Of a stretch of DNA of 64,000 bases, positions 44,100 through 60,501 are shown in pieces; positions within the stretch are counted from its first letter, which is position 1, and every line of letters starts with the position of its first letter. The stretch is from contig NJBN01000005.1 in the NCBI GenBank assembly GCA_005223185.1, positions 29,091 to 93,090 of the forward strand. Reading direction: 5' to 3'. A program made the translations under genes and the position numbers. The DNA is from a candidate division LCP-89 bacterium B3_LCP (GTDB lineage: Bacteria > Electryoneota > B3-LCP). The notes under the pieces were generated by a model that searched no databases, was not told where the DNA came from, and saw nothing but the letters and a program-made list of their open reading frames with translations.

Positions 44100-44234
44100 T
44101 GGGCAAAAGCTCCTGATAAACATATACATAGACTGAGATGAAGCCGATTTTGACAGGGTAAGGGATTCCCAGCAGGGATCAAAGGGGGTATTTTTTTCCT
44201 GAAAAGTGAGGTGAAATTTTAATCGAAAGCGGGG

Positions 44235-45095: not shown

Positions 45096-45128
45096 ATTAT
45101 TGCCAATAAATATTGTTATGCCTACCTG

Positions 45129-45509
45129 TTAATCATCCCACCCATCGGGAGGCCAGAAGGCATTTTCGAAGTGTTCCACTACCGTTTCTCCACGAACCAA
45201 TTTCACGGAGATAATGTCAAACCTGCATGAATCGAAAGAAGGTCTGTTTTCCACCAGAAAGCTTTGTGCACACTTAGCGATCTTTATCTGTTTTTTGTGA
45301 CCAACGCGGATTTCAGGATGTGATTCACCGCTAAAACGGCTGCTCTTTACTTCGCAGAAAACCAGGACGTCATCCTTCTGAGCTATAATATCTATCTCAG
45401 CAAAGCGTATGCGATAGTTGCGTACAATGATGCGATAACCTTTATTTTGAAGGTACTGTGCAGCTTGACCTTCTGCCTCGTTACCAATGTCTCTGGTCGA
45501 TGGATTCAA
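45129..45509 (-). CDS. yraN: YraN/UPF0102 family protein
   Basis: GNEAEGQAAQYL, NYR...EIDIIA, FCEVK, CRFDII. Confidence 0.9.
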   Translation of the reverse strand: MNPSTRDIGNEAEGQAAQYLQNKGYRIIVRNYRIRFAEIDIIAQKDDVLVFCEVKSSRFSGESHPEIRVGHKKQIKIAKCAQSFLVENRPSFDSCRFDIISVKLVRGETVVEHFENAFWPPDGWDD

Positions 45510-45510
45510 G

Positions 45511-46146
45511 TTAAAGCGTTACTTTAAAACTACGGCGATGTATATCGCAATATCCGTGTGTTTTAATGGATTCCCTATGAGCTTTTACAGGATAACCTTT
45601 ATGCTTGTCAAAGCCGTATTCCGGGTGCCGGTGGTGATAGTCAACCATTATGCGATCTCGTGTAACTTTGGCGATGATCGAAGCGGCTGCGATGGAAAAA
45701 GAGCGACTATCGCCTTTTATCAGCGAATCCTGAGGAATATCGCAATCGGAGATCATCTGATTGCCATCAATCAGGAGATGATCCGGACGAATGACCAGAT
45801 CATCAACTGCCCTGCGCATGGCTAAAAGACTGGCATTGAGGATATTCATGCTATCTATTTCAACAGGGGAAGCCTGACCAATACCCACGTCCAGAGCGGC
45901 GGCAATGATGCTTTTGTAGATAATTTCACGCTGTTGGGGTGACAGGAGTTTGCTGTCGTTGACTTGCGGGATGAACAGTTCCTGTGAAAATATCACCGCA
46001 GCAGCGACTACGGGACCGGCTAAAGGACCTCTTCCCGCTTCATCGATTCCGGCAATGTAGTGCTTTCCCGCACTCCAGAGGTTTCGTTCAAAGTGGAAAA
46101 GTCCCTCTATTCGGTCCTTTTCATGTTTATTAATCTTCAGCGCCAA
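45511..46146 (-). CDS. rnhB: Ribonuclease HII
   Basis: AGIDEAGRGPLAGPV, NDSK, LLIDGN, IAAASIIAKVTRD, HKGY. Confidence 0.96.
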   Translation of the reverse strand: MALKINKHEKDRIEGLFHFERNLWSAGKHYIAGIDEAGRGPLAGPVVAAAVIFSQELFIPQVNDSKLLSPQQREIIYKSIIAAALDVGIGQASPVEIDSMNILNASLLAMRRAVDDLVIRPDHLLIDGNQMISDCDIPQDSLIKGDSRSFSIAAASIIAKVTRDRIMVDYHHRHPEYGFDKHKGYPVKAHRESIKTHGYCDIHRRSFKVTL

Positions 46147-48452
46147 TCGACACTCCAGAGATCCCTGCCATTTGACTTATAAACGGCGGCATTATGCATA
46201 TCGGTTCGGTGTACGAATGTTTTCATCTCCTGTAAGTTGGACATAACTTCAGCAGCAGGGTGTCCGTATGGGTTATATTTCCCACAGCTAATAACCGCAT
46301 GTTCCGGTTTTACCATATTTAAGAAATCTACGTCTGAAGAATAACGACTGCCATGATGCGGTATTTTCAATACTTCGCAGTTCAGATAACTTCCAGAAGT
46401 TGTAAGGATCCTCTCCTGTTTCCATCCGATATCGCCGGTGAATAAGAAATCAACGTCACCATGCGACAATTTCAGCACAAGGGAACGGTCGTTATCATCA
46501 CCCTGGTAGTTCCGTGGCGGCCAGAGCGCCAAACATTTTGCACCAGCTAAAATACATATAGTATCACCAAGGCTGATTTGCCGTACAGGAATATCCTTTG
46601 ATCGCGCTGTTTGGATGATCATTCTACCTAATTTATCTTCGGGATCAAGCTGGTTTACTATTAACCGTTTCACCTTCAGGAAATTCATGATTTCGCAGGC
46701 TCCACCGGCATGGTCAGAATCAAAATGCGAAATGATCAAGGCATCTATGCGGTGAAACCCTCGTTTCTTCAGTGAAGGAATAACTTCGAATTTGGCGGCG
46801 TCAGCGCTGCCGCAGTCAATCAAAACATTCGCTTTTTCAGGGAAGTGGACAAAGGCAGCATCTCCCTGGCTAATGTCTAAGAATTCCACTCGCAGATGCG
46901 CGTCAGTTGGAACCACAGGGAGTAACAAAAAGAAGGCTAAGGCGCCCCCAACTACGATAATCCTCAGCTTCCAGGTGCGGTATAGAATGAATCCCAATAG
47001 TGCCGCTGACAACACAATAGCGGATAACAGTCCGCCATGTCCGAAAGCGAAGCTGCCCGGGAGTGTAGATCCCAATTGTGCCAACCATTGCAGTGATTTC
47101 AAGCCTAATTCGATAGCGCCTGAGATGGCTGTAGCAGGGATGCCAGCTATAAAATCAAAGATTATTGCCAGCCAGCCTAAGAAAAATACGACTCCGGTCA
47201 ACGGAATGGCTATGAGATTCAGGAGAATGGAAACAGGCGCGTAACCACCGAAATGAGCTATCAGAACAGGAGCAGTGAAGGTTACAGTACAGACGCTGAT
47301 GAGCAGTGGGATGAAAGCGTAATTTTCTATGAACCGCCAGAAATTCCCGTTCCAGTGGGAAAAATCGGTTCGTCTGAAGAACAGGTTCTCACGAACGTCG
47401 ATCGCCAGTAAAACGCCCGCCATAGCTGTGAAGGAAAGTTGAAATCCCGGCGTGAAGAGCTGGTGGGGAGCGAACAGCAGGATAATTAAGGCTGCTGCAC
47501 CCAGCAAATTCCAGCGGTTGGGAAGCCGTTTAATTTCGTGACTCAATAAGAATAGAGAGATCATCAAAGCGGCTCGCAGGGTGGGCGTGTTGGAGCCAGT
47601 TACAATTACGAAACCCCACATCAAGGCAAGCAGTAGAAACCGGCGAATGTGAAGATTGCGCACGAAAGGGTTGATGAACAGTGTCAGCACGGCTAATAGA
47701 AATCCGATATGGAGACCGCTCACTGCCAAGAGATGATAAAGACCACTGCGCCTGAAATCATCTCGAATGTCGGTGGGAAGAGCCGATTTCTGACCTAACA
47801 GCATACCGGACAGGTGACCAGCCTGTCGCGGCGGCAGCATCCTGGCGATGGCACCCGTTAGGGCACACGATACTTTATTCGCGGCTGAAGGGTCAGCTAT
47901 CTGCACAGGCACGATCGAATGGGGTTTCATCCATCCCATGATACCTCGATAGGCGAACTCGAGCTTAAGGTCCCTGCCGCCGGGATTGCGCTTGGGCGGA
48001 TAGGGTTTTATTTCTCCTGATAATAGCAGTCGCGATCCTGGAACTGCGGGAAATTCTCCATTATCGGTGATTAGGCGTAATTTGCCATTTAATTCTTGAA
48101 ACGCAATCGCATCTGAGCTAAACCAATCCGGTTCGAAAACCGATACCGTTCTCTCGCCCGTCTGATATGTAACCTCAACAAGTTCGCCGCAGAGCAATAT
48201 TTCACCCTGAGGCAGGTTTTCTGCGGAGTACCTAATGAGATTAATACTTCCCGATAGCAGCACACCAACTAAAAACAACGAAAGGTAAACTAAGAAATCA
48301 CACCATCTTGACTTGAAGAAAGCTATTGTAACTAAAATCCCGACTGCCGTTGAACACAGAAATATCAATGTATCCTCGAGTACGAGGAGATTTCCTATGA
48401 TAATTCCAATCGCTAAGAATAACGCTATTTTCAGTGCTGGAAGCGACTTCAC
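46137..48452 (-). CDS. comEC: DNA internalisation competence protein ComEC/Rec2
   Basis: HLLAVSGLHIG, PGFQLSF, metallo-beta-lactamase domain DISQGDA, SHFDSDHAGG, LKIPHHGS, N.YGHP. Confidence 0.93.
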   Translation of the reverse strand: MKSLPALKIALFLAIGIIIGNLLVLEDTLIFLCSTAVGILVTIAFFKSRWCDFLVYLSLFLVGVLLSGSINLIRYSAENLPQGEILLCGELVEVTYQTGERTVSVFEPDWFSSDAIAFQELNGKLRLITDNGEFPAVPGSRLLLSGEIKPYPPKRNPGGRDLKLEFAYRGIMGWMKPHSIVPVQIADPSAANKVSCALTGAIARMLPPRQAGHLSGMLLGQKSALPTDIRDDFRRSGLYHLLAVSGLHIGFLLAVLTLFINPFVRNLHIRRFLLLALMWGFVIVTGSNTPTLRAALMISLFLLSHEIKRLPNRWNLLGAAALIILLFAPHQLFTPGFQLSFTAMAGVLLAIDVRENLFFRRTDFSHWNGNFWRFIENYAFIPLLISVCTVTFTAPVLIAHFGGYAPVSILLNLIAIPLTGVVFFLGWLAIIFDFIAGIPATAISGAIELGLKSLQWLAQLGSTLPGSFAFGHGGLLSAIVLSAALLGFILYRTWKLRIIVVGGALAFFLLLPVVPTDAHLRVEFLDISQGDAAFVHFPEKANVLIDCGSADAAKFEVIPSLKKRGFHRIDALIISHFDSDHAGGACEIMNFLKVKRLIVNQLDPEDKLGRMIIQTARSKDIPVRQISLGDTICILAGAKCLALWPPRNYQGDDNDRSLVLKLSHGDVDFLFTGDIGWKQERILTTSGSYLNCEVLKIPHHGSRYSSDVDFLNMVKPEHAVISCGKYNPYGHPAAEVMSNLQEMKTFVHRTDMHNAAVYKSNGRDLWSVDWR

Positions 48453-48456
48453 TTCA

Positions 48457-49152
48457 CTATTCTTTTTGAAATATTGCCAAGATTACTGCTCCCCGCAGGA
48501 TTAGTCTGTAGTCTTTCATGGTGAAACCAGCTCTGGCGTTTTCCTCTTCAAGTTCATCTAAACCGGGGAATTGATAGACCGAATCACGGAGGTATTGGTA
48601 AGCATGCGGATCAGAGGAAAGCGCCCGACCGATTAAGGGCACGATTCTCTTGAAATACAGACTGTAAACATGAGGAAAAATGAAACCGTGCGGTGTGGAC
48701 ATTTCCAAAAAGCCCCAGAAACTACCAGGTTTCAGCACACGGTGAATTTCCTTAAATCCCAGCAGACGATCCTGAAAGTTGCGGATTCCAAAAGTACATA
48801 TTACGCCATCTACCGATTCTGACTGCAAGGGGAGCGATTCTGCTACACCCTTGGTCAACTTAGCCGAATTGACTTTCTTGCGGTAGAGTTCAAGCATGGG
48901 AATGGAGGGATCGATACCTATAACTTCAACCCGAGGACAGATCGCTTTAAGAGCATTTTCCATATCCCCGGTACCTGCGGATATATCCAGGAATATCTGT
49001 CCTGATCGGGGATTCATCCACCTGGCTAAATCCGAACGCCAACGCTTGTCGCGTCGCCAAGATATTATGGAATTCAGATGATCATATACTGGCGCTATGC
49101 GATCGAAATGCGAGACAACATTGTGGCGATCCGGACACATCAGGGCAGACAC
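48457..49152 (-). CDS. menG: UbiE/MenG-family quinone C-methyltransferase
   Basis: FDRIAPVYDHLN...WR, LDISAGTGD, FGIRNF, AYQYLRDSV. Confidence 0.8.
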   Translation of the reverse strand: MSALMCPDRHNVVSHFDRIAPVYDHLNSIISWRRDKRWRSDLARWMNPRSGQIFLDISAGTGDMENALKAICPRVEVIGIDPSIPMLELYRKKVNSAKLTKGVAESLPLQSESVDGVICTFGIRNFQDRLLGFKEIHRVLKPGSFWGFLEMSTPHGFIFPHVYSLYFKRIVPLIGRALSSDPHAYQYLRDSVYQFPGLDELEEENARAGFTMKDYRLILRGAVILAIFQKE

Positions 49153-49159
49153 AGGCGCG

Positions 49160-49993
49160 TTAAAAGAGATTTATATGATAATGTGCCACCTGCCATATAA
49201 ACACAAAGGGTACCGATAGAATTAAGCTGTCGAAACGATCCAGAACGCCGCCATGTTCGGAGAGGAGGGTTCCTGAATCCTTGACGCCTGCAGATCGTTT
49301 GAAGTAAGATTCGATAAGATCACCGAATTGCCCCACCAACCCGACAACGACGGCGACAAACAGCAGGTCGTTCAGGTCGGTTCTACCGGCTAAAAAGGGC
49401 CACCAGAGAAATGCCCAGATAAAAGCTCCCATAACGCCGAAGAAAAAGCCTTCCCAAGTCTTTCGGGGGCTTACATAAGGAGACATCCTGTGTCTTCCGA
49501 AAGCTTTGCCACCGGCGTAAGCTGCCGTATCACAGATCCAGATTGATGAAAACAGGTAGAGGGTGTACCCAGTTGAGATCTGTAAATCATCCCATACTGC
49601 ACTGCGGATATAGACTAACAACCCCAAGAAAAGGGGTATGTATATCCAGCCGAAGATGGTCAGAGGAAGATCTCGGTAAGCCTGCCGTTCACCGAAGCGA
49701 ATTTCGATAAAGGCCAAGAGAACTGCCAAAATGAGCATTAAAGCTAACCAATGCCCGGGTAACAGAAATTCGGCCATAAAAACCGCCAGGACGGCAGATA
49801 ACACCGCTGGAAAGGTCTGCGGGTTGAAATGACGAGTTTCCGCCATAGAATAGAATTCAAAGAGAGCGATACCTGCGATTACCGCTACAAAGAGGGCGAA
49901 AACCCATCCTCCCAACAGCGTCACTATAAAGATTAAGGGTATTCCCCAAGCGGCTACACCCAGACGGGTAATCAGAGGTCTTTGATTCTGCAT
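49160..49993 (-). CDS. cdsA: Phosphatidate cytidylyltransferase
   Basis: DTAAY..G, SPRKTWEG, GDLIESYFKR..GVKDSG, HGGVLDRFDS. Confidence 0.95.
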   Translation of the reverse strand: MQNQRPLITRLGVAAWGIPLIFIVTLLGGWVFALFVAVIAGIALFEFYSMAETRHFNPQTFPAVLSAVLAVFMAEFLLPGHWLALMLILAVLLAFIEIRFGERQAYRDLPLTIFGWIYIPLFLGLLVYIRSAVWDDLQISTGYTLYLFSSIWICDTAAYAGGKAFGRHRMSPYVSPRKTWEGFFFGVMGAFIWAFLWWPFLAGRTDLNDLLFVAVVVGLVGQFGDLIESYFKRSAGVKDSGTLLSEHGGVLDRFDSLILSVPFVFIWQVAHYHINLF

Positions 49994-50036
49994 AATGTGA
50001 TTTTTTACTTATATTATTTGATTCATCACCATTACC

Positions 50037-50735
50037 TTACCGGGTAATGTACTTAATGTGCCAGAAGCATTCGCCTATGTGAATATCCATTTTGTCCGTC
50101 CATGGAGCGAAAATATGGCGGAGCGCTTCTGCGTCATAATAGTTTTTCAGGATTTTATGCTCAGTTCCGTCCAGAAGATGGCGCAATTTGTAACTGTTTT
50201 CGTCACTTTTCTCTGCTATCAATTCGCCACCAATTCCTGGTATATAGACATTATCCACCATGAATACCGGTGAATTCGCTGTCAATCTGTCGTGAAAACC
50301 GCTTAAGAATTGCTTGATCTTGACTTTCGGAACGTGCGAAAACCAGAAAGCTGCCAGACCTGCGTCGAACTTTTCCGGGATCGCATCCAACTGATAGGCA
50401 TCTACCTGCCGGAATTCGATCACGGATCGGGGAAAGCCTTTTTGTCGTGCTTCTTTCAGCATTTCAGGAGAAGTGTCAGTGGCAAGGATTTTATCCGCGA
50501 TTTTTACCAATTCTGCAGTCCAGAAACCGCTTCCGCAGGCGATTTCCAGCACGCGACGCTCTCTGAATATCTCCTTGATATTGTCAGCGATATCCTCCTG
50601 TTCTCGCTGACGAACAGGATCATCACGATGGAATTTATCTTCATAATCACAAGCGTGGCGGTTGTAATATTCCCGCACAGCGAGTTCATTAACGGGAAGG
50701 TTTGGGGAGTTTTCTCTATTCTTTGTGGAGTTCAT
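50037..50735 (-). CDS. Class I SAM-dependent methyltransferase, substrate unknown
   Basis: VLEIACGSGFWT motif I, FDAGLAAFWFSHVP. Start set at ATG 50735. Confidence 0.8.
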   Translation of the reverse strand: MNSTKNRENSPNLPVNELAVREYYNRHACDYEDKFHRDDPVRQREQEDIADNIKEIFRERRVLEIACGSGFWTAELVKIADKILATDTSPEMLKEARQKGFPRSVIEFRQVDAYQLDAIPEKFDAGLAAFWFSHVPKVKIKQFLSGFHDRLTANSPVFMVDNVYIPGIGGELIAEKSDENSYKLRHLLDGTEHKILKNYYDAEALRHIFAPWTDKMDIHIGECFWHIKYITR

Positions 50736-50749
50736 ATAATGATCTTTTT

Positions 50750-51217
50750 CTAATTCGCACCCTTCCCTGTCCCCCACTCGATAACTTCAATACGTACTCG
50801 CGCAGTTCCAGCAACCACCATATCGATAACCTGGGCTGCGCCTAAAGAAAGATCGATGATGCGCCCTTTTACGAAGGGACCGCGGTCATTGATGCGAACG
50901 TTTAAGCTTTTTCCGTTATCTAAGTTTTTCACCTTTACCACAGTGCCCAGCGGTAGAGTTTTATGTGCGGCAGAAATCCCGTTCATATCGAATATTTCAC
51001 CTGATGAAGTGGGTCTTCCGTGAAATTTATCGGCGTAATAACTGGCGATACCGGTTTCGACATACCTGCTTCCAGGTTCTACAACCGGAGACACGGGACC
51101 ACTGCGATAGCGGGGCATGGACGTGCAACCCCAGAAGGAAAGGGTTACGAATAAAACGATGAGACAAGCTGGAAAAGTTGTGACAAAAGTTCGTTTAGAA
51201 TATCTGATAAAATTCAT
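50750..51217 (-). CDS. rlpA: RlpA septal-ring lytic transglycosylase lipoprotein (DPBB domain only)
   Basis: Lipobox [38 protein letters not shown]. Confidence 0.92.
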
Positions 51218-51236
51218 GTGTTACGCTGCAATTATT

Positions 51237-52151
51237 TTATATGTCCAACGTGCCCACCAAATCCTGGACTCCGCTGATATCATGGCTAATACAGAACTCT
51301 TCGATCCCACTTAGTACCTCCAGCGGAGCTTGAGGATCGACAAAATTGGCAGTACCGATCTGAACGGCGTTGGCTCCGGTGATGATGAATTCAAGCGCAT
51401 CTGAAGCTTTAGAAATTCCTCCAATACCGATTATGGGGATGGAGACCGCTCTTCTAACTTCCAGCACTTTAGCCAGCGCTACCGGCTTAATAGGCGGTCC
51501 GGAATAACCTCCTGTTACGGTGGCAAGTTGAGGACGACGCGTTTCGATATCTACTGACATGCCAACCAGAGTGTTAATCAGAGACACAGCATCGGCGCCG
51601 GAGTCCGCGCAGACTCGAGCTATCTCAGCGATGGAAGTGACGTTCGGTGTAAGTTTAGGTATTACTGGTCTTTCGGTGCGCTGGCGTATTCCGCTTATAA
51701 TTTCTTCCGTTACAGCAGGGTTAGACCCAAAAGCCATCCCCTCGTCCTTCACATTGGGGCAGGAGATGTTTATTTCATAAGCATCTATGCCCGTTTGATC
51801 ATCCAGTTTTTCTATCAGTTCCCAGTACTCTTCTACATTCGATCCGGCGATGTTTACGATTATTGCTGTATCGATCTCCCGCAAGGCGGGGAGTTTGTCA
51901 GTGATGAAAGCATCGGAACCGACATTAGCCAGACCGATGGAGTTGAGCATACCTCCAGATGTCTCCCAGATGCGAGGCGGAGGATTACCCGGGCGGGGCT
52001 GCGGCGTTATGGTCTTGGTGATAATGCCACCTAACCTGGATACGTCAATCAGTTCTGCATATTCAGTGCCGTATCCGAAAGTACCGGAAGCAACTAAAAC
52101 GGGATTCTTCAGATCCAGCTTCCCAAGCTTGACTGACAGATCGACTTTCAT
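51237..52151 (-). CDS. pyrD: Dihydroorotate dehydrogenase, catalytic subunit (class 1B)
   Basis: KNPVLVASGTFG, NSIGLAN, EINISCPN, KLTPNV, INTL, GGYSGP. ATG at 52151 overlaps the upstream stop (ATGA). Confidence 0.96.
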   Translation of the reverse strand: MKVDLSVKLGKLDLKNPVLVASGTFGYGTEYAELIDVSRLGGIITKTITPQPRPGNPPPRIWETSGGMLNSIGLANVGSDAFITDKLPALREIDTAIIVNIAGSNVEEYWELIEKLDDQTGIDAYEINISCPNVKDEGMAFGSNPAVTEEIISGIRQRTERPVIPKLTPNVTSIAEIARVCADSGADAVSLINTLVGMSVDIETRRPQLATVTGGYSGPPIKPVALAKVLEVRRAVSIPIIGIGGISKASDALEFIITGANAVQIGTANFVDPQAPLEVLSGIEEFCISHDISGVQDLVGTLDI

Positions 52152-53065
52152 GCGCCTATTGCCTCCCTTCGGCGGAGGTAACGGTTCAAATATTGACCGC
52201 AATTCGATCCTATCCTGTCCTCTTCCGGTTGCCCGAGACTCAAGATTACTTCATACCCGACACGTTTAAGTTCCACAACGATCTCACCCGAACCATCGCC
52301 ACTATGGGGATTAATCCGGGTTTGGAGGTTGTTCTTTTGGCTGTTCTGGGTAGGATTAAGCGGAGTTAGTTTTACTAGAAAGACGTCTGTATCGAAGAAT
52401 TCAAGGAGCACGTCCGCATCAATTGGGAATCCTTCAGCCATGGCGAAATTCAAGGCTATTTTCCTATCACCTGGTGAAAAGAAGCTCTCCCCTATTTCCG
52501 CTGCTTGATGGAAATCCATCAGGGGATAATTTATCAATTCATGACGCAATTGCTGGTCTGTAGTGTGCAGTGAAAACTGCAGCTGAAAGCGACCACCAGA
52601 ATAGAGTTCATTCTTTATAGTTACCAACTCATCGAAAAAACTGTGGCGTTTTGCAGGTAAAACCGATGAAATACAGGGCATTAGTCCGGGAGCGTGATAC
52701 TTTTTTGGTAGAGTTCTCAGAACGTTCAGAACCGCATCGTTTAGCGCTGGTTCACCCATGCGTGCAAACTGGATCTTGAACTTGGGAACAGGCACGCTGC
52801 GATCTGGGAAACGCGCTGTCACCAGAGCATCGATCTGCGCGAAGATTTCATCTTCACTCAAACGACCATGATAATCACCCCCTGCATCACACATAAGGCA
52901 GCGCACAGGACAACCGTTCAGAGTGGAGACGATCAGCACCCATTTTTCCTCGCGAGGAATTGGGGGTTGAAGGGATTCGACGAATTCCACTACTGAACCA
53001 GTTTCCGTTTCACCCAGATACAACATCGCCAGATCTTCACGACCGTGATGTTCTATTATGTTCAT
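52148..53065 (-). CDS. RlmN/Cfr-like radical SAM protein (short, function unknown)
   Basis: C52-C56-C59 (GCPVRCLMC), RMGEPALN, LQFSLH, C-terminal GSNCGQ; 305 aa. Confidence 0.82.
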   Translation of the reverse strand: MNIIEHHGREDLAMLYLGETETGSVVEFVESLQPPIPREEKWVLIVSTLNGCPVRCLMCDAGGDYHGRLSEDEIFAQIDALVTARFPDRSVPVPKFKIQFARMGEPALNDAVLNVLRTLPKKYHAPGLMPCISSVLPAKRHSFFDELVTIKNELYSGGRFQLQFSLHTTDQQLRHELINYPLMDFHQAAEIGESFFSPGDRKIALNFAMAEGFPIDADVLLEFFDTDVFLVKLTPLNPTQNSQKNNLQTRINPHSGDGSGEIVVELKRVGYEVILSLGQPEEDRIGSNCGQYLNRYLRRREAIGA

Positions 53066-53946
53066 TATTGATTATTTTCCTGTAGAAATTGCGTGATTTC
53101 CATGGCACAACGCAGCCCATCTCCGACGGCAATGCCCACCTGACGGCAACTGCCGTTAACCACGTCCCCGATGAAATGGAACTGCGGAATTTCAGGCTTG
53201 TTCTTCAGTTCCGGTGATAAAAAAGCTAACTCAGGATGACGCCCAACAGCGCAAAGCACTAAATCTGCACAGATTGGTGAAGGCGTTCCGCCTCTAAAAT
53301 TGACCACGACCTGTGATTTTTCTCTGGTTATAGCAACTGGTTCTGCGTTGTAGATACGCTTAATATCTGACATTGATAGTACTCGTTCATCAAGAATCCG
53401 AAGGCAACACGGACTTGCGGATCTCATGGCGATGATCACGTCCATCTTGCGCCATGCCAAAGATAGAGCATAGTCGAAAGCCGCGTCTCCGCCTCCAATG
53501 ATGCAGGCAGTGCCAGCCAAACTTTCGGGAAGGTTCCTCAGTTCGGTAAAGACCTTCTTCCCAGACAAATCCTCAACGCCGTGTATATCCAGTTGATTGG
53601 GTGTCGTACCAGCAGCTACTATAACAGTACGTGCAATAACTTCTTTATTATTAATTGAAGCAATGAAATGATCGTCCATCCGGTGCAGATCATCTGCATG
53701 AGCATGCTGAACTTGTATGTCAAGCTCTTCTAAATGTTCCTGAAATAACTTCGCCAGATCAAGCCCAGAGATGCCCCGGGCAAAACCCGGGTAGTTTTCA
53801 ACCCAACCGGCGTTTAATAAAGCTCCTCCTATACGATCCTTTTCGACTATGAATGGATCAAACCCGGCTCTCTTCAGTTGCAGCGCAGCCGCTATTCCCG
53901 CAGGTCCAGCGCCAATTATAAGAACCTCAACTTCTTGTGATTGCAT
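53065..53946 (-). CDS. TrxB-fold FAD/NAD(P)H oxidoreductase lacking the CxxC disulfide
   Basis: IIGAGPAG, ENYPG, IIGGGDAA, FIGDV...RQVGIAVGDG; KVFTELRNL replaces the usual VSACATCD. Confidence 0.85.
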   Translation of the reverse strand: MQSQEVEVLIIGAGPAGIAAALQLKRAGFDPFIVEKDRIGGALLNAGWVENYPGFARGISGLDLAKLFQEHLEELDIQVQHAHADDLHRMDDHFIASINNKEVIARTVIVAAGTTPNQLDIHGVEDLSGKKVFTELRNLPESLAGTACIIGGGDAAFDYALSLAWRKMDVIIAMRSASPCCLRILDERVLSMSDIKRIYNAEPVAITREKSQVVVNFRGGTPSPICADLVLCAVGRHPELAFLSPELKNKPEIPQFHFIGDVVNGSCRQVGIAVGDGLRCAMEITQFLQENNQ

Positions 53947-53962
53947 TAAATAATTGCTGCTT

Positions 53963-54736
53963 TCAGGTAATTAAATCCCAATCAACGTCGGCTCCGTTGA
54001 AGACTGGGCCATCCGTGCAGACGAGCTTATATCCTCCACCAACACTCTGCGCACACCCCTGGCAAACCCCAATTCCGCAAGCCATTCTACTTTCAAGTGA
54101 TACTTGATATAATATGCTGTTATGTGCGCATAATTCATCTGTTTTTCTCATCATGGGTACAGGACCACAGGTATAAACTGTATGAATCTCTGATGGATTT
54201 TCACCGAGGTGTTTTTCCAGTAGATCAGTAACCAAACCTTTAATCCCGAAGCTGCCGTCATCTGTGCAGTAGGAAATATTGCGTTCGGGAATAACCGCAT
54301 CCGGCAAGGGGAATTTTTCATGTGATTGTCCACCCAAAAAGAATGGCACTTTTTTTCCCTGTTTGACTAACTCATCCTGTAGCATCAGTAAGGGCACTAC
54401 ACCGATTCCACCGCCTACTAAAACCACAGCATCCGCATTTTGGTAGGTGAAACCTTTCCCCAAAGGCCCAATTACGTCGCATATTTGACCTGTTTGCAAA
54501 TTGGACAATAACTCAGTACCCTTGCCGACAATTTGTATAATGAGGGAAATAAGGCCGTCCCCTGCGCCTGCAATACTAAACGGTCTGCGTAGAAGGATCC
54601 CAGCACCATCTACCTTCAGATGTACAAATTGACCGGGCTTGGCCAACTCAGCAATTTGTGGTAGTTCTAAGACGAGGGAAAATATAGTCGGACGATACCT
54701 TTCAACCTGGCGGACGACGCCTTTTTCCTGGATCAT
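53963..54736 (-). CDS. pyrK: Dihydroorotate dehydrogenase electron-transfer subunit
   Basis: PGQFV, LRRPFSI, GPLGKGF, GGGIGVVP, CGPVPMM, RMACGIGVCQGC...VCTDGPVF (2Fe-2S). Confidence 0.95.
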   Translation of the reverse strand: MIQEKGVVRQVERYRPTIFSLVLELPQIAELAKPGQFVHLKVDGAGILLRRPFSIAGAGDGLISLIIQIVGKGTELLSNLQTGQICDVIGPLGKGFTYQNADAVVLVGGGIGVVPLLMLQDELVKQGKKVPFFLGGQSHEKFPLPDAVIPERNISYCTDDGSFGIKGLVTDLLEKHLGENPSEIHTVYTCGPVPMMRKTDELCAHNSILYQVSLESRMACGIGVCQGCAQSVGGGYKLVCTDGPVFNGADVDWDLIT

Positions 54737-54738
54737 TA

Positions 54739-57132
54739 TTAAGGTGTAAACCGAACGAGTTGAGTCATGGGAGAATCTATATACTGCCCGTCTCTGTACC
54801 CTGGGCGAAATTGGACGCTCTGCAGTACTTGAATTGCATTTTCAGCGAAATCGAAACCATCCGGCGTTTCCCGAAGTACTTCAAAGTAATCAGGTATCCC
54901 TTGCGAGTTCACTGTAAATGTCAAGATGACTTCACCTGCAATGGAAGCTTCCAGCGCAACCGGAGGGTATAGGCGATTCTGGCTGATAGCATCACTTAAC
55001 GCTCTTTCACCACCCATTATTTCGGGCATACCGGAACCGGGGGGCACAGGTTCGAATTCATCGGCTAATTCAACGGTTCCGGTCGTATCCTCCCCTACTT
55101 TCAGACTATCCGGAATTTCGACTGGTGGGGGAGCGACCTTCTTTTTCGCCATAGTTATATATTGCGATTCGGGATACCAAGCGATTAACGAATCGTAGGA
55201 AGCAAAAGCGCCTTCGGCGTCCTCCATAACGTTTTCCATAATCCAGGCGGATGCGTAGAGCGCCTGAGGCGCCAGATCTGAATCGGGCCATTTTTCCGTA
55301 ATGAGAAGGTAAGCATCCACGGCTTCAGACGGTGATTCTTCTTCCAGCCAGAGATTTTCGGCATTTAAATAAGCTTCAGCAACTGTATCTACCGGTTCAG
55401 GCAACGGTTCCAAACCTAAGAGATTTCTCGCCCACCGATCGTATTCGCCTGCGGGGTACTCTTCATGCAGAATGTTGGGAATTGAATCCGACATGGCGGA
55501 ATCGGATGAAGCAAGCTCCTGCAAGTAGTGTAGTGAAAGCAGTGCTTTAGCGCGAAGATCAACATAATCATGCTGCCCGGCTATATCATTGAATATAACA
55601 TTCGCTGAATCAATATCGTCAAACCTGGTCCAGAGGTGTTCTGCTAATCTGAAACGGTAATCGGCGAGTTCCGCTCTGTCCAGGTCGATGCGCTCATAGA
55701 CTTCTGCAGAATCGGTGGGTAATTCTCTGGCGAAAGCCGGAGATGGCATTTGCTGACCAGGTGTCTGCCCAGGTCCAAATTTTCCCTGCGGAAATTGCCC
55801 GGGATACTGAGGATTGTATCCGGGGGGCATAGCGCCTTCAGGCATGGATGATTGAAATCCTGGTTTTGGGGGAATTCCCGGCTGTTCCGGACTATCACCA
55901 CCAGCCTGCTGAACACCTGCGTCTTTCAAGGTATCCAATTGCACTGCTGCTGATGAATCCACCATACTTGAGTCCACCGAAAGGCTGTCACTATTTTCAG
56001 CAATCCACTCCAACCTGTACTCAAGAGTGTCTATATCGGCAGTCAGAGAATCAATACCGGTGATCAGTGTGGTTAGGTACTGTAAATCTATGACTGTTTC
56101 AGAAGCCTCTTCAACAAATTCACTATCGCTCGCCTCACTGCTGACTTTGGCTAGATACTCTTCAGCCTGAGTGAAATCGTTCATACTCATGTATATTTGT
56201 CCCAGACGAAAACTCGCCACTGCGGATGTTTCTGAACGAGGATAGAGTTCGAGAATTCGCTTGTAGATTTCAATGGCTTCTTCTGTTTGTCCCAGCTCAT
56301 TGAGAACACCAGCTTTAGCCAGATAAGCACGATCGTAATAGCTGAAATAGATGTCCTTCTTTAATAGTTTATTGCAAATTTTCAGAGCATCCTGCAGACG
56401 TCCCATCTGTTGTAAAGTTAAGGCGAGTTTATAATTAGCTTCAAAGCGCCGTAACCGGGTCGGTTTTTCATCGGATACCTGCGAATACGCTTGCTCTGCT
56501 TCCTGAAATTCCCCTAATTCATAGTGACATTCACCTTTCTGGTAGAGGATGCTGGCTCGCTCTTTTTTGTCTTTGGTGGCGCCCAGAAGTTTATCATATT
56601 CAGCGAGCGCCTGGTAGTAACTCTCCTGATCGAAAAAGTAGTCCGCCTGAGTTCTGCGGCTTTCCTGACGAACTTCAATTGGCGTTTGTTCATCCAGCCA
56701 GAGGTCATTGAGGAGGGCTATCCCATCATCAGTCCTGCGCATCTTAATCAAGGTTTTTCCTAAATAGAGGCGCGCTTCGTAAGTCAGGGGTGAATCGGGG
56801 TAGTTGGTGAGGAGTTCGTCGAATTTACGCCGCGCCTTGGGATAGGTCATTATGGCATAGTAGGACTTCCCCATCAGAAGTATGGCATCATCGACGTATT
56901 TGCTATCGGGGTAATATTCGATAACTCGCGCAGCAGAGTCAATTGATTTCTGGTAGTTAGCGGTCGATGGTCTTCCGGTAGTGGTGTTTTCGCTGTCCTT
57001 CTCACCTTCCTTGAAGTACTTCTTGGCGTTATAATAAGTATTAAAATAGACACACGACGACAGATTGAACGCTATGAATACATTCAATAATACGACCGTC
57101 AGTATCCTGATATGTTGCCAACGAGAGGTCAT
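54739..57132 (-). CDS. TPR lipoprotein (SprE/BamD-like) fused to a C-terminal TonB domain
   Basis: Lipobox LSSC followed by VYFNTYYNA, many TPRs (YPDSKYVDDA, YPRSE), a P/G/Q-rich insert, and C-terminal YPPVALEASIAGEVILTFTVNSQG...FRPG. Confidence 0.8.
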   Translation of the reverse strand: MTSRWQHIRILTVVLLNVFIAFNLSSCVYFNTYYNAKKYFKEGEKDSENTTTGRPSTANYQKSIDSAARVIEYYPDSKYVDDAILLMGKSYYAIMTYPKARRKFDELLTNYPDSPLTYEARLYLGKTLIKMRRTDDGIALLNDLWLDEQTPIEVRQESRRTQADYFFDQESYYQALAEYDKLLGATKDKKERASILYQKGECHYELGEFQEAEQAYSQVSDEKPTRLRRFEANYKLALTLQQMGRLQDALKICNKLLKKDIYFSYYDRAYLAKAGVLNELGQTEEAIEIYKRILELYPRSETSAVASFRLGQIYMSMNDFTQAEEYLAKVSSEASDSEFVEEASETVIDLQYLTTLITGIDSLTADIDTLEYRLEWIAENSDSLSVDSSMVDSSAAVQLDTLKDAGVQQAGGDSPEQPGIPPKPGFQSSMPEGAMPPGYNPQYPGQFPQGKFGPGQTPGQQMPSPAFARELPTDSAEVYERIDLDRAELADYRFRLAEHLWTRFDDIDSANVIFNDIAGQHDYVDLRAKALLSLHYLQELASSDSAMSDSIPNILHEEYPAGEYDRWARNLLGLEPLPEPVDTVAEAYLNAENLWLEEESPSEAVDAYLLITEKWPDSDLAPQALYASAWIMENVMEDAEGAFASYDSLIAWYPESQYITMAKKKVAPPPVEIPDSLKVGEDTTGTVELADEFEPVPPGSGMPEIMGGERALSDAISQNRLYPPVALEASIAGEVILTFTVNSQGIPDYFEVLRETPDGFDFAENAIQVLQSVQFRPGYRDGQYIDSPMTQLVRFTP

Positions 57133-57143
57133 GCGTAAATGGT

Positions 57144-57908
57144 TTAGTTCTTAGATTTTGTTTCGATCTGCTTGATTTTGTTCACCAAATCAGGCAGCAC
57201 CTGCGCTGAAGAATCCGTGAAGACTGCATCTGCTAATGATGTGATGGGCGTCCTATCTGGATTAATTTCAACCAATAAAGCGCCGCTATCCTTGGCTACA
57301 ACGGGCAATGCCGCAGCAGGATGAACCACTGCTGACGTTCCTATTGAGAGAAACAGGGTAGCCTGTTGCGAATGAAGAAAAGCATCTTCTATTGTCACAT
57401 GATTTAAACCTTCTCCGAACCAGACTACGTCCGGGCGTATCTGTCCCTGACAGTTCAAACAAAGGGGCGGTAACTTATCGAAGTCCAGGGTATCATCCGG
57501 ATAGCGTTCAGAACATGAATTGCACCTGTTCAGGAAGATGTTTCCATGCAGTTCAATAGGATTTTTATGACCGGCGCGGCGGTGCAGGCCATCCACGTTC
57601 TGGGTTATTAAGATAAAACGATCCTTTAGCACTTTTTCCAATTCCACCAGCGCGTCATGCCCGGCGTTTGGGTTCGATTGTGCTATTATCTGTCTCCTGT
57701 ACAGATACCATTCCCAAACCATTTGAGGATTACTGGCGAAAGCCTGCGGTGTGGCTAATTCTTCCGGTCTGTGTTGCCGCCACATTCCTCCTTCCCCACG
57801 GAAGGTCGGCACGCCTGATTCTGCTGATATACCGGCACCAGTTAAGGCAACTACCTTCCTGAGATGGTCAGCGGAGATATCAAACGAATCTATTTCAGTT
57901 AAATCCAT
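57144..57908 (-). CDS. cobB: NAD-dependent protein deacylase (class III sirtuin)
   Basis: GAGISAESGVPTFRG, TQNVDGLH, ELHG, CxxC/CxxC zinc site, RPDVVWFGE, GTS; the WYLYRR (YxxR) motif suggests desuccinylase activity. Start set at ATG 57908. Confidence 0.93.
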   Translation of the reverse strand: MDLTEIDSFDISADHLRKVVALTGAGISAESGVPTFRGEGGMWRQHRPEELATPQAFASNPQMVWEWYLYRRQIIAQSNPNAGHDALVELEKVLKDRFILITQNVDGLHRRAGHKNPIELHGNIFLNRCNSCSERYPDDTLDFDKLPPLCLNCQGQIRPDVVWFGEGLNHVTIEDAFLHSQQATLFLSIGTSAVVHPAAALPVVAKDSGALLVEINPDRTPITSLADAVFTDSSAQVLPDLVNKIKQIETKSKN

Positions 57909-57910
57909 AC

Positions 57911-57939
57911 TTGACAAACGATGTTTTTTTTCATATATT
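57911..57939 (+). promoter_or_regulatory. Sigma70 promoter of rpsT
   Basis: TTGACA-N17-TATATT, 27 nt upstream of the ATG. Confidence 0.8.
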
Positions 57940-57966
57940 TAAAGTTCACTTAATTTCGGAGAGTAC

Positions 57967-58263
57967 ATGCCACAACATAAATCCTGTAAGAAACGCGTAA
58001 AAACCAGCGCTATATCAAGGGAAAGCAATCGAACATATCGGTCTCAGGTTAAGACGTTAGTACGCCAAATCAAAGAAGCCAAAGACCCTGAATCAACACA
58101 AGCGAGCCTGCGCCAGGCAATATCTCATTTAGATCGTTTAGCGCAGAAGGGCATCGTGCACAAAAATAAGGCTGCCAACCAGAAATCCAAGTTATCTAAG
58201 TTAGCCAATAAGATGACTCAGGTGTCAAACCACTCAAGGGTCCTTACGGACGAGGGCGTTTAA
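57967..58263 (+). CDS. rpsT: 30S ribosomal protein S20
   Basis: MPQHKSCKKRVK...N..YRSQVKT, LDRLAQKGIVHKNKAANQKSKL. Confidence 0.96.
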   Translation: MPQHKSCKKRVKTSAISRESNRTYRSQVKTLVRQIKEAKDPESTQASLRQAISHLDRLAQKGIVHKNKAANQKSKLSKLANKMTQVSNHSRVLTDEGV

Positions 58264-58289
58264 CACCACAGTACTATAACCAGAGACAT

Positions 58290-59789
<1,500 letters not shown>

Positions 59790-59888
59790 TTAAGTCTATT
59801 TAATCCGTTATACCTTAAACGAATGGTGATGTTCCGAACCTTAGGCTGATCTTTGCACTTTAAGTCATCAAAAATAATGCACGATAAT

Positions 59889-60497: not shown

Positions 60498-60501
60498 ATG
60501 T

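Follow-up and report, generated by a model that had tools for sequence, protein, structure and literature searches.

The flavoprotein gene and the radical SAM (rSAM) gene that lie between pyrK and pyrD in the candidate division LCP-89 bacterium B3_LCP are a real conserved unit, and an enzyme system that is widespread among anaerobic bacteria and archaea has this pair as its core. A single lineage has the system inserted between the two dihydroorotate dehydrogenase (DHOD) genes, with which it is co-expressed, yet it is no general part of pyrimidine synthesis. We consider it highly probable that the two proteins form an obligate two-component system with a function unrelated to DHOD. The explanation that fits best, a self-contained two-component system for net-reductive radical chemistry on a small metabolite, is evenly poised when taken as a whole. 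The window analysed here is the full 64,000-nucleotide stretch of contig NJBN01000005.1 (positions 29,091 to 93,090).

Results

The order pyrK–flavoprotein–rSAM–pyrD on the minus strand, which a preliminary description had given with a 16-nt gap followed by TAATG and ATGA junctions, was confirmed at the coordinates in Table 1. The pyrK product matches PF10418 (DHODB_Fe-S_bind, 50.1 bits), PF00970 (FAD_binding_6), and PF00175 (NAD_binding_1), and its translation contains a cysteine-rich C-terminal stretch, CGIGVCQGC...C; its best NCBIfam matches are DHOD B electron-transfer subunit models, each under its equivalog cut-off. The pyrD product is matched by PF01180 (257 bits) and passes the cut-offs of NF005574 (410.6 bits; cut-off 269) and TIGR01037 (356.6 bits; cut-off 270). 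While the longest pyrD reading frame begins with TTG at 52202, homologous loci put the start at the ATG (L005). The 4-nt overlap of rSAM and pyrD recurs in L005 and L006, and the pyrK–flavoprotein gap is 14 nt in L005. GC content in the four-gene region is 0.46–0.49, equal to the flanks, and the search for internal promoters and terminators gave no convincing candidate. A TPR/TonB_C gene upstream stops 2 nt short of the pyrK ATG, so the co-directional string exceeds four genes.

Table 1. Genes and junctions of the four-gene region, in window positions
Feature	Coordinates	Strand	Size and notes
pyrK, class 1B dihydroorotate dehydrogenase electron-transfer subunit, upstream flank	54736..53963	minus	257 aa
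Spacer between pyrK stop and flavoprotein ATG	53947..53962	minus	16 nt, read from sequence
Flavoprotein, TrxR-fold FAD protein without redox-active CxxC	53946..53065	minus	293 aa; Pyr_redox_2/3
TAATG junction, flavoprotein stop/rSAM start, 1-nt overlap	53063..53067	minus	read from sequence
rSAM, short RlmN/Cfr-fold radical SAM protein	53065..52148	minus	305 aa; CxxxCxxC
ATGA junction, rSAM stop/pyrD start, 4-nt overlap	52148..52151	minus	read from sequence
pyrD, class 1B dihydroorotate dehydrogenase catalytic subunit, downstream flank	52151..51237	minus	304 aa from ATG

Of the 77 related loci whose upstream DNA sufficed for the check, 76 have the rSAM gene directly preceded by the flavoprotein gene, and the pair spans over 12 phyla of bacteria and archaea, with Thermoplasmata and Heimdallarchaeota carrying the rSAM family as well as bacteria. 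The single exception (L062) has the flavoprotein gene two genes downstream of rSAM. Junctions between the two genes are mostly overlaps of 4 nt or 1 nt, and reciprocal look-ups from flavoprotein homologues found the rSAM gene downstream every time. The proteins are also fused, with the flavoprotein N-terminal, in P0243 (7 member sequences from several contigs), P0265, and P0295. Co-occurrence in essentially every related locus, translational coupling, and occasional fusion bear out the earlier suggestion of a dedicated two-gene module. Our literature search found no publication on the flavoprotein–rSAM module, nor on the biochemistry of any member.

A third gene usually accompanies the pair, that of an isochorismatase-family cysteine amidohydrolase, which adjoins it in 48 of 66 loci. 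P0274, P0277, and P0287 are fusions of this enzyme to rSAM; we know of no description of an isochorismatase fold fused to an rSAM domain. The amidohydrolase has the fold of PF00857, as do the isochorismatase-like cysteine hydrolases (YecD, BiuH, RutB, PncA, and N-carbamoylsarcosine amidase), and its Asp-Lys-Cys triad is conserved. Its nearest relatives are YecD, BiuH, and RutB, but it scores far under the cut-offs of all specific models. The hydrolase is absent from the window and is not adjacent to the pair in the window's clade. Apart from it, no recurrent neighbour was found in the related loci, where the surrounding genes vary.

Only 4 of 82 loci have the pair flanked by pyrK and pyrD, all in the window's own clade (LCP-89/Zixibacteria-like), and these are the loci with the closest rSAM proteins. 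The four-gene arrangement is not chance, since the same order is found in relatives (L005, L007, L008, L009, and L090) whose rSAM proteins are 62–70% identical; synteny with L005 extends over the whole region. The coupling to pyr genes had been read as a hint at the substrate, but the link is limited to this one clade, with an amidohydrolase partner and varied neighbours elsewhere, and the pyr context therefore gives no general substrate clue. Given this limit, the fallback offered at the time, an insertion using the operon's promoter, is the better fit.

The rSAM protein carries its cluster cysteines C52, C56, and C59 in the motif CPVRCLMC (CxxxCxxC) and a C-terminal cysteine, C289, within an invariant GSNCGQY motif. 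In the family alignment, the three cluster cysteines and N288-C289-G290-Q291 are invariant. No Pfam match was obtained at E<0.01, and NCBIfam RlmN/Cfr matches are weak (15–35 bits against cut-offs of 290–550, with 22 bits against 290 for the RlmN model). The family profile aligns with Cfr (9p0p, 4.9e-9) and RlmN (3rf9, 2e-6) as far as the CGQ motif, and the top Foldseek matches of the AF2 model (pLDDT 91) are the RlmN-like 6fz6, RlmN, and Cfr, at TM ~0.7. These scores, alignments, and structural matches agree with the earlier view of a protein that is RlmN-like yet no plain RlmN orthologue. Cross-phylum sequence conservation is high (50–60%), and the family is acidic, with a median pI of 5.8 and a pI of 5.3 for the window protein. 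Proteins of the window's clade retain every family-invariant residue; the 'GYTY' C-terminal tail, present in most other members, is missing from them. The automatic name of the protein at JGI is '23S rRNA (adenine2503-C2)-methyltransferase'.

RlmN and Cfr are class A radical SAM methylases of 23S rRNA A2503 and tRNA A37. The rSAM protein has their fold, the 4Fe-4S/SAM motif CxxxCxxC, and an (M)GEP motif, and the cysteine of its C-terminal CGQ falls on RlmN C355 and Cfr C338 in the alignment. It lacks the second cysteine, as RlmN C118 aligns to a hydrophobic I/L/M column of the family profile. Identity to RlmN/Cfr is ~17–20%, and every curated cut-off is failed. The cluster motif lies at residue 52 versus ~125 in RlmN, and the N-terminus is ~55–70 residues shorter than in RlmN/Cfr, so that there is no RlmN_N domain. 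A plain RlmN orthologue was rejected on the scores, the missing N-terminal domain, and the missing C118. The rSAM protein is always accompanied by the flavoprotein and usually by the amidohydrolase, whereas RlmN and Cfr have neither partner.

The flavoprotein shares the two-Rossmann FAD architecture and the VENYPGF and GDV...RQ motifs with low-Mr TrxB and those of its relatives that lack CxxC or do not depend on NADPH (FFTR and TrxR-type FNR). It is free of a CxxC motif, as had been described. It further differs from TrxB in its NRSxxxK/R in place of the NADPH motif HRRxxxR, its length of 293 aa, and the lack of a C-terminal extension, and it is paired with a radical SAM enzyme instead of thioredoxin or ferredoxin. 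The assignment to the YumC type has to be given up, with sequence and predicted structure closest to true low-Mr thioredoxin reductases. TrxRs were the best matches in a PDB sequence search (E down to 6e-25), TIGR01292 scored 133 bits against a cut-off of 343, and the AF2 model (pLDDT 92) fits best to TrxR in its NADPH-facing FR conformation (TM 0.86–0.88). TrxR-type FNRs in the PDB are 40–70 residues longer than the flavoprotein and match its N-terminal half only. Only one of its cysteines is semi-conserved, and since about 20% of sequences have another residue there, this candidate for a resolving cysteine in trans was rejected.

A family of short RlmN-like rSAM proteins, fused to QueT-like and MTA/SAH-nucleosidase-like domains or located in phage replication modules, is clearly homologous to the window rSAM (hhalign E 4.7e-44, 31% identity, 264 columns). 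Like the window rSAM, the proteins of this sister family are shortened, have no counterpart of C118, and conserve the C-terminal cysteine, but the motif is TCGN versus NCGQ, and they have their own N-terminal extension of 50–60 residues. No flavoprotein or isochorismatase partner was found in the three loci inspected. The family is possibly related to the queuine lyase QueL (C. difficile Q186P0).

Discussion

We propose that the rSAM protein and the flavoprotein form a complex whose target would be a small soluble metabolite instead of rRNA or tRNA, with a radical reaction that is reductive overall. A small molecule is the probable substrate rather than RNA, with an N-heterocycle or an amide the more likely kinds; the acidic pI and the missing N-terminal domain argue weakly against an RNA or protein substrate. 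Methyl(ene) transfer has about an even chance of being the chemistry, and its likeliest form would be an RlmN-type methylene transfer from SAM by way of methyl-Cys289 to an sp2 carbon. In RlmN, C355 is the covalent intermediate that carries the methyl or methylene group, C118 resolves the adduct, and the C118A/S substitution traps the cross-link (PMC10838301). The term radical methylase, used for the protein from the start, still names a presumed activity: the family keeps the motif with the cysteine that carries the methyl group but has no resolving cysteine. FAD reduced by NAD(P)H may give the two electrons, as a hydride, which RlmN draws from its C118/C355 pair, and this step would free the product as a methyl compound and regenerate Cys289. 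That the flavin takes part in resolution or hydride supply, and does not just reduce the cluster, we offer only tentatively, and the flavoprotein may reduce the iron-sulfur cluster too. Where present, the amidohydrolase would work on the same molecule before or after the radical step.

The working model for this mechanism is HmuW/HmuF of anaerobic heme degradation, which, like ChuW/ChuY, consists of an rSAM methyltransferase and a neighbouring reductase and, like the window pair, is linked in one operon. There, the rSAM methylase adds an electrophilic methylene, which the adjacent flavoprotein reduces with a hydride. The genes often lie side by side, and the two proteins have been suggested to form a complex (PMC10404700). 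HmuW and ChuW differ from the window rSAM in being class C (HemN-like) methyltransferases that act on heme, and neither system is homologous to the window proteins, HmuF being a flavodoxin-fold FMN protein and ChuY resembling biliverdin reductase.

The fusion or coupling of the flavoprotein would be explained equally well by a role as dedicated electron donor to the cluster. It would then be an NAD(P)H-dependent reductase of the rSAM [4Fe-4S] cluster, replacing flavodoxin or ferredoxin with their reductase and leaving the substrate untouched, a reading that we find possible but doubtful. The TrxR/FNR-type fold without CxxC, the partly kept NADPH-domain motif, and the tight coupling all suit it. 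So do the fusions, whose N-terminal flavoprotein recalls the flavodoxin domain fused to the radical SAM domain in eukaryotic TYW1 (PMC9186531). TYW1 is a precedent for joining a flavoprotein reductase to an rSAM enzyme, as in the P0243-type fusions, although its flavoprotein fold is flavodoxin/FMN, its rSAM domain comes from another family, and its substrate is tRNA. However, the hosts are anaerobes in which low-potential ferredoxins are expected, most rSAM enzymes have no reductase of their own, and linkage close to 100% in over 12 phyla suggests that the chemistry needs the flavoprotein stoichiometrically. The two-electron chemistry of FAD and NAD(P)H is also ill suited to a cluster that takes one electron at low potential, and a cluster reductase leaves unexplained how a class-A-type enzyme without a resolving cysteine releases its product.

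The C-terminal cysteine could have another role, for example as an H-atom donor, since the sister family keeps it without any sign of methylation. We find it rather unlikely that the rSAM protein is no methylase but uses the 5'-dA radical as a lyase, isomerase, or reductive enzyme, with C289 donating the H atom and the flavoprotein re-reducing the system. The missing resolving cysteine would fit, as would the sister family, with its C-terminal cysteine and its fusions to a QueT-like transporter and an MTA/SAH-nucleosidase-like domain. Those fusions resemble the queuosine-salvage set of QueT, QueK, and QueL, the last of which is a radical lyase (PMC11130926; bioRxiv 10.1101/2023.12.05.570228). 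Against this, no preQ1 riboswitch was found upstream of the QueT-fused gene, and the exact RlmN/Cfr CGQ motif is invariant in the window's rSAM family, which argues that the role of the loop is conserved.

It is improbable that the pair is a housekeeping RNA modifier, with a divergent RlmN/Cfr acting on adenine C2/C8 or another base of rRNA or tRNA and the flavoprotein as helper. RlmN and Cfr are the closest characterised relatives, and the cross-phylum conservation and the JGI name point the same way, but the family is acidic, scores far below the cut-offs, and lacks the N-terminal domain and C118. A cysteine amidohydrolase partner, sometimes fused, would be useless for RNA methylation, and the spread over Thermoplasmata, Heimdallarchaeota, and bacteria in patchy, module-like contexts is typical of accessory metabolism.

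Members of the window's clade have no hydrolase gene next to the pair and lack the 'GYTY' tail, so the function may have shifted there, and an order kept across such divergent relatives could mean a functional tie to DHOD. Even so, the reading in which the operon position is functional and the pair of this lineage acts on dihydroorotate, orotate, or UMP, or trades electrons with PyrK/PyrD, is the least probable that we considered: order and coupling are conserved in at least six loci (the window, L005, L007, L008, L009, and L090), the same two clade traits would fit a clade-specific adaptation, and the hydrolase's relatives include, weakly, RutB of pyrimidine degradation, but all contexts outside the few with an adjacent pyrD are non-pyrimidine, the retained family-invariant residues indicate that the chemistry is probably unchanged, and the synteny with L005 means that common descent alone can explain the conserved order.

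Locus structure

The four genes between 54736 and 51237 lie on the minus strand in the order pyrK, flavoprotein, radical SAM protein (rSAM) and pyrD, exactly as they had been placed in the preliminary description, and all four open reading frames and their junctions were read from the sequence. The TAA of the flavoprotein gene and the ATG of the rSAM gene have one base in common (TAATG), and the TGA of the rSAM gene is overlapped by the ATG of pyrD (ATGA). pyrK and pyrD are consequently not adjacent in the window, as the 1.8-kb flavoprotein-rSAM pair stands between them. PyrD is a clear class 1B protein (NF005574, 410.6 bits vs a cut-off of 269). The three Pfam domains of PyrK score above their cut-offs, and the NCBIfam equivalogs score below theirs (174.6 vs 314 bits).

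Features of the interval from pyrK to pyrD in the window
Feature	Position or length	Strand	Description
pyrK	54736..53963	-	257 aa; DHOD-B Fe-S domain PF10418 and FAD/NAD domains PF00970 and PF00175
Spacer between pyrK and flavoprotein gene	16 nt	-	Read from the sequence
Flavoprotein gene	53946..53065	-	293 aa; Pyr_redox_2/3
rSAM gene	53065..52148	-	305 aa; CPVRCLMC (CxxxCxxC) at residues 52-59
pyrD	52151..51237	-	304 aa; class 1B

A TPR/TonB_C gene upstream of pyrK stops 2 nt short of the pyrK ATG, which makes the run of co-directional genes longer than four, and no convincing internal promoter or terminator was found within the four-gene stretch. A recent horizontal insertion with foreign composition was ruled out, given that GC content and skew equal those of the flanks. 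Scans of the whole 64-kb window returned no Rfam families and no tRNAs, and when sequencing runs (RNA or DNA) containing the region were sought for co-transcription, none were listed. Of the 47 ORFs in the window (1..64000) that reach 180 aa or more, 46 are on the minus strand, an unusually strong co-orientation for 64 kb, and the cumulative GC skew falls steadily over the profiled region of 44-62 kb.

Conservation of the flavoprotein-rSAM pair

Relatives of the rSAM protein, about 305-330 aa long, number in the thousands. At E ≤ 1e-3 these form 6496 clusters at 90% identity, and the profile search returned 167, 635 and 2617 representatives at 50% identity for E ≤ 1e-30, 1e-10 and 1e-3, respectively. 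Among the pattern matches listed for species-representative genomes, at least 549 (of 600) encode an rSAM relative. The best 80 loci come nearly all from uncultured anaerobes: bacteria of LCP-89, Zixibacteria, Eisenbacteria, Cloacimonadota, Chloroflexota, Acetothermia, Fraserbacteria, Acidobacteriota, Planctomycetota, Latescibacterota, Aminicenantes, Clostridia, a Fervidobacterium and Coatesbacteria, together with Thermoplasmata, 'Methanobacteriota' and Heimdallarchaeota. The family ranges over at least 12 phyla and both prokaryotic domains.

We fetched 82 non-redundant loci (prefix L below) and located homologues of the four window proteins in them by tblastn. Adjacency of the flavoprotein gene was scored on the 77 loci in which the sequence upstream of the rSAM gene spans 900 nt or more, and in 76 of these it lies directly upstream on the same strand. 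The sole exception is a Heimdallarchaeote locus (L062), which has the order rSAM, isochorismatase, flavoprotein. A 4-nt overlap is the commonest junction between the two genes and a 1-nt overlap the second commonest. Reciprocal look-ups began from three flavoprotein homologues, one on a Methanomassiliicoccales chromosome, one on a 470-kb contig and one on a short contig belonging to the window's clade, and each time the next gene downstream was that of the rSAM. The two proteins are also found fused, in the profile-search representatives P0243 (625 aa), P0265 and P0295, the first of which is represented by seven sequences from several independent contigs. The pairing of rSAM and flavoprotein is obligate, as this tight coupling and the fusions show. 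The preliminary description had proposed a dedicated module of two partners, and the idea is borne out by near-universal adjacency, overlapping codons and fusions; far from failing to co-occur elsewhere, the two genes decisively travel together.

In one LCP-89 metagenome-assembled genome (L008, 6007-7000), the flavoprotein gene is apparently split into ORFs of 167 and 110 aa beside intact rSAM and pyrD genes. The split may reflect a frameshift, a pseudogene or faulty assembly.

A hydrolase partner and a variable neighborhood

A gene of the isochorismatase family (PF00857), here called the hydrolase, lies directly upstream of the flavoprotein gene in 48 of the 66 loci with room for it. Conservation of its Asp-Lys-Cys triad (VLDMQ, KSQYDAF, MTHLCCETTAR) predicts a cysteine amidohydrolase and not a true isochorismatase, and its nearest named relatives, all far below cut-off, are YecD, biuret hydrolase, RutB and nicotinamidase. 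Fusions of rSAM to this protein were found as well (P0274 from Elusimicrobia, P0277 and P0287), and the predicted amidohydrolase is thus frequently coupled or fused to the module. In the 64-kb window, tblastn with eight module hydrolases found no homologue (best E 0.08), and pyrK occupies that position.

Clustering of all ORFs in the 82 loci gave three recurrent families only, namely the flavoprotein (76 loci), the rSAM (73 loci) and the hydrolase (49 loci). A wider conserved neighborhood that might reveal a pathway was rejected on this result, the clustering having returned the module families only. Pfam domains were also counted in the two genes closest to the module on either side, and nothing recurred beyond the synteny of close relatives. 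Near the module, Bac_luciferase, APH, adenosine deaminase, PfkB and Pterin_bind are each confined to 2-7 related genomes. The neighbors vary from locus to locus, with folate and Wood-Ljungdahl genes in L088, NfnAB-like genes in L087 and lipA in L068.

At locus L101, rpoD-like and apt genes adjoin a fused flavoprotein-rSAM version of the module. On this metagenomic contig, at 524-3629, apt (212 bits vs a cut-off of 170) is followed directly by the isochorismatase gene and then by the fused gene. In two loci from Anaerolineales (L031 and L064), an adenosine-deaminase-family gene stands directly upstream of the module. These neighbors are faint and anecdotal hints towards an adenine-type substrate. 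An anti-phage defense system was considered and rejected, since PADLOC gave no match for the rSAM or the hydrolase and matched the flavoprotein only in its N-terminal Rossmann region.

The pyr context

The tight coupling to pyrK and pyrD had been taken as a hint at a pyrimidine, nucleoside or RNA substrate, and the comparison across loci does not support the pyrimidine hint. Only the window's closest relatives, whose rSAM proteins are 62-70% identical, have the pair between these two genes; the pyr-embedded loci are L005 (GCA_026394195), L007, L008 (from LCP-89), L009 (from Zixibacteria) and L090. An adjacent pyrD was scored in 4 of the 82 loci, in the window's own clade only. Positions 50037..59774 of the window are syntenic with L005 (GCA_026394195.1, JAPKYS010000013.1), at an rSAM identity of only 65%. 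Both have guaB, rpsT, a Sir2-family gene, TPR/TonB_C, pyrK, flavoprotein, rSAM and pyrD, followed by an RlpA-like DPBB gene, cdsA, a ubiE-like gene and comEC. Synteny of the whole neighborhood indicates that the pyr arrangement was inherited within one lineage. A pyrimidine-specific role in the window's clade is conceivable at most, the one observation pointing to it being the gene order of that clade.

Several smaller differences were observed among these loci. An extra 246-aa methyltransferase gene is present in the window (50037..50777), at the place of an FKBP gene in L005. In the pyr-embedded clade (window, L005, L007 and L008), the rSAM proteins are 305 aa long, end 14 residues past the CGQ and have no C-terminal 'GYTY' tail, which most other members carry. 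Loci with an adjacent hydrolase gene number 26 with the tail and 13 without, and loci lacking the hydrolase gene number 8 with and 8 without, so the tail does not simply track the adjacent isochorismatase gene. A second, independent case of the pair beside a PyrK-family electron-transfer gene, without pyrD, is found in Methanomassiliicoccales (L087, CP070739.1, 2726-9859). There, the pair has no hydrolase and lies downstream of a PyrK-like (DHODB_Fe-S_bind) gene, with a GltD-like gene and a gene for a large multi-domain Fe-S flavoprotein also upstream.

A short RlmN/Cfr-fold radical SAM protein

The CxxxCxxC cluster motif is invariant across the rSAM family alignment. Pfam gave no match to the window protein at E < 0.01, and its matches to the RlmN/Cfr models of NCBIfam are weak (15-35 bits vs cut-offs of 290-550), with 22.2 vs 290 for TIGR00048, 34.6 vs 422 for PRK14464 and ~15.7 vs 530-550 for the Cfr models. 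An AlphaFold2 model built from 29 family members (pLDDT 91) has as its best PDB matches in Foldseek the RlmN-like 6fz6, E. coli RlmN and Cfr (TM ~0.7). The top 11 matches are all RlmN-like, RlmN or Cfr, and other radical SAM families score much lower. The family profile matches Cfr (E 4.9e-9) and RlmN (E 2e-6) and aligns through to the C-terminal motif, where the invariant N288-C289-G290-Q291 falls on the 'AACGQ' of both. C289 is the counterpart in this alignment of C355 in RlmN, the methyl-carrying cysteine, and of C338 in Cfr.

Fold, cluster motif and C-terminal CGQ cysteine are therefore common to the window protein and RlmN/Cfr, whereas the resolving cysteine, the N-terminal accessory domain and an above-cut-off score are missing from it. 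The column of C118, the resolving cysteine of E. coli RlmN, holds I, L or M in 29 of 29 aligned family members; in the profile alignment, 'LCVSSQVGC' of RlmN and 'FCISSQCGC' of Cfr stand over 'LIVSTLxGC' of the family. Beyond the cluster cysteines and C289, the family alignment contains no further invariant cysteine. Selenocysteine variants were looked for, and none of the catalytic cysteine positions has an in-frame stop. In the window protein, the cluster cysteines begin at residue 52, vs about 125 in E. coli RlmN, so the RlmN N-terminal domain is absent from the rSAM, and the profile alignment starts at RlmN chain residue 109, Cfr residue 83 and NCBIfam model positions 77-100. The family is acidic, with a median pI of 5.8 (5.3 for the window protein).

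The rSAM is an RlmN/Cfr-fold protein that fails three defining features of the RlmN/Cfr family, and it has a class-A-like active-site loop without the resolving cysteine. A plain RlmN orthologue, the possibility that the preliminary description had set against its own proposal, is excluded by the sub-cut-off scores, the absent N-terminal domain and the absence of C118. No canonical rlmN was found in the 64-kb window, where the one weak tblastn match lies inside mutS. That match, to a fragment of E. coli RlmN (E 0.006) at 18302..21007, is spurious, as the region is a 901-aa ORF for a complete MutS with all five MutS domains.

A thioredoxin reductase fold without CxxC

The flavoprotein had been described as a thioredoxin reductase (TrxR) fold without CxxC and as YumC type, and only the first of these holds. 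No CxxC occurs in the sequence of the window protein. Its best specific model is that of thioredoxin reductase (TIGR01292, 133.1 bits vs a cut-off of 343.45), and its best PDB sequence matches are low-Mr TrxRs over the full length, with E down to 6e-25. The AlphaFold2 model (pLDDT 92) has a TM of 0.86-0.88 to the TrxR structures 5mh4, 1f6m, 5vt3 and 3cty, and the best-fitting of the TrxR structures are in the FR conformation, with NADPH facing the flavin. The protein thus has in common with low-Mr TrxB the two-domain FAD/NAD(P)H fold, but not the redox-active CxxC of the NADPH domain or a score above the TIGR01292 cut-off.

The YumC-type assignment proved wrong. TrxR-type FNRs (3lzw, 2zbw, 5ygq, 3ab1 and 6gas, 331-360 aa) match only residues ~3-172 of the flavoprotein, its N-terminal half (E 1e-9 to 2e-6), and no FNR is among the top 50 structural matches to the model. 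The protein ends at residue 293, directly after the last helix, without the FNR-type C-terminal extension. These partial matches, the shorter length and the structural neighbors together exclude a YumC-type FNR.

At the place of the TrxR motif HRRxxxR, the flavoprotein family has (L/M)(N/x)R(S/G)xxx(K/R), in which two basic residues out of three are retained; the alignment also includes a genuine TrxR (L068_1175), which reads HRRDQLR. Use of NAD(P)H by the flavoprotein is plausible on the strength of its sequence. The only semi-conserved cysteine of the family is at position 181 (80%, the rest being A, G, S or V). We considered the flavoprotein as an in-trans source of the resolving cysteine and rejected it: with this cysteine replaced in about 20% of members, the flavoprotein holds no essential cysteine for that role.

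Proposed chemistry and its main rival

In RlmN-type chemistry, the methyl group of SAM passes to the C-terminal cysteine, where it loses a hydrogen to the 5'-dA radical; the CH2 radical so formed attacks an sp2 carbon, and two electrons from the cysteine pair then resolve the thioether adduct. Because the second cysteine is absent, the rSAM would have to obtain this electron pair from another donor, and a tightly bound flavoprotein that NAD(P)H can reduce is the obvious choice. The C-terminal cysteine (C355 in RlmN, C338 in Cfr) forms the covalent substrate intermediate that C118 resolves, and the RlmN variants C118A and C118S remain cross-linked to RNA (PMC10838301; bioRxiv 10.1101/2025.09.18.677109). 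A small soluble substrate, and not RNA, is suggested by the presence of a hydrolase as partner, by the acidity of the rSAM and by its lack of the N-terminal domain.

By inference from these features, we favor a system of two components that reductively C-methylates a metabolite of heterocyclic or amide type. The rSAM would transfer a methylene from SAM, via its C-terminal cysteine, onto the metabolite. The flavoprotein would supply the two electrons for adduct resolution, giving the methyl product, and the hydrolase, where present, would process the same molecule as the pair. HmuW/HmuF is a direct precedent for such a division of labor, yet belongs to an unrelated system: a radical SAM methyltransferase installs an electrophilic methylene, which the adjacent flavoprotein reduces to a methyl by hydride transfer (PMC10404700).

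The main rival is that the flavoprotein solely reduces the rSAM cluster, a role that the flavodoxin domain in the TYW1 fusion may likewise have (PMC9186531). What makes us prefer reductive C-methylation is the missing cysteine, with the demand it leaves for two electrons. In its most specific form, which we think rather unlikely to hold in full, this would be a third route of radical SAM C-methylation. The substrate of a class-A enzyme without a resolving cysteine would be a free N-heterocyclic metabolite, for example a base of the purine, pyrimidine or pyridine kind or an amide derivative, and the reaction would take place in many uncultured anaerobes, bacterial and archaeal. An FADH- hydride from the TrxR-fold flavoprotein would resolve the Cys-S-CH2-substrate adduct or an exocyclic methylene. 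Such a route would join RlmN-style methylene transfer with ThyX/HmuF-style flavin reduction. An attractive candidate product would be 2-methyladenine, a cobamide lower ligand for which, to our knowledge, no dedicated synthase has been reported.

Literature searches found no published description of the flavoprotein-rSAM module, and NCBIfam has no model specific to it. The source annotations call the rSAM 'radical SAM protein' or '23S rRNA (adenine2503-C2)-methyltransferase', and the flavoprotein 'thioredoxin reductase (NADPH)' or 'NAD(P)/FAD-dependent oxidoreductase'. Since the defining features are lacking, the labels '23S rRNA methyltransferase' and 'thioredoxin reductase' are probably wrong. 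The rSAM family is a large sister of RlmN/Cfr in which the catalytic cysteine loop is kept and the RNA-associated N-terminal domain and the resolving cysteine are gone. It is locked to a TrxR-like flavoprotein, up to gene fusion, and usually also to the predicted cysteine amidohydrolase. The novelty of the rSAM lies in a class-A fold with a short architecture that lacks the resolving cysteine, and in its new obligate partners; every component fold is known, so it does not amount to a category of its own. If the reductive C-methylation mechanism is true, class A chemistry extends to small molecules, radical SAM enzymes and flavoenzymes divide their labor in a new way, and a TrxR-like protein without a disulfide gains a function. 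Without its flavoprotein, an rSAM that has no resolving cysteine should covalently trap its own substrate, which would be identifiable by mass spectrometry.

A sister family in fusions and phages

Another family of short RlmN-like radical SAM proteins is clearly homologous to the window's family (hhalign E 4.7e-44, 31% identity), and its C-terminal cysteine is retained in the motif TCGN. In the fusion proteins P0333, P0351 and P0384, and at L099 (7001-9445), the rSAM is fused to a QueT-like ECF S-component, and P0351 and P0384 have a further C-terminal domain above the MTA/SAH-nucleosidase cut-off (223.9 bits vs 169). The QueT-rSAM-nucleosidase fusion looks like a one-polypeptide import-and-process device, its cargo possibly a queuosine-related base. 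No preQ1 riboswitch was found upstream of the fusion gene.

QueL is a radical SAM queuine lyase (C. difficile CD1684, Q186P0). QueT, QueK and QueL are queuosine-salvage genes, with QueL acting as a radical lyase (PMC11130926; bioRxiv 10.1101/2023.12.05.570228). The domain set of the sister family recalls this salvage set, an indirect likeness at the level of domains. It is the basis of the second rival to reductive C-methylation, namely that the window's rSAM is not a methylase at all, for here a homologous family retains the cysteine in a setting reminiscent of a radical lyase.

The sister family is also phage-borne. In Bacteroides phage Versailles (ON453897.1, 15696-16703; L097), its gene sits in a replication/recombination module, and further members occur in the crAss-like Kehishuvirus and in a number of phages of Vibrio, Aeromonas and Pectobacterium. 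Three large, phage-like metagenomic contigs of 156-431 kb (L091, L093 and L095) carry it as well.
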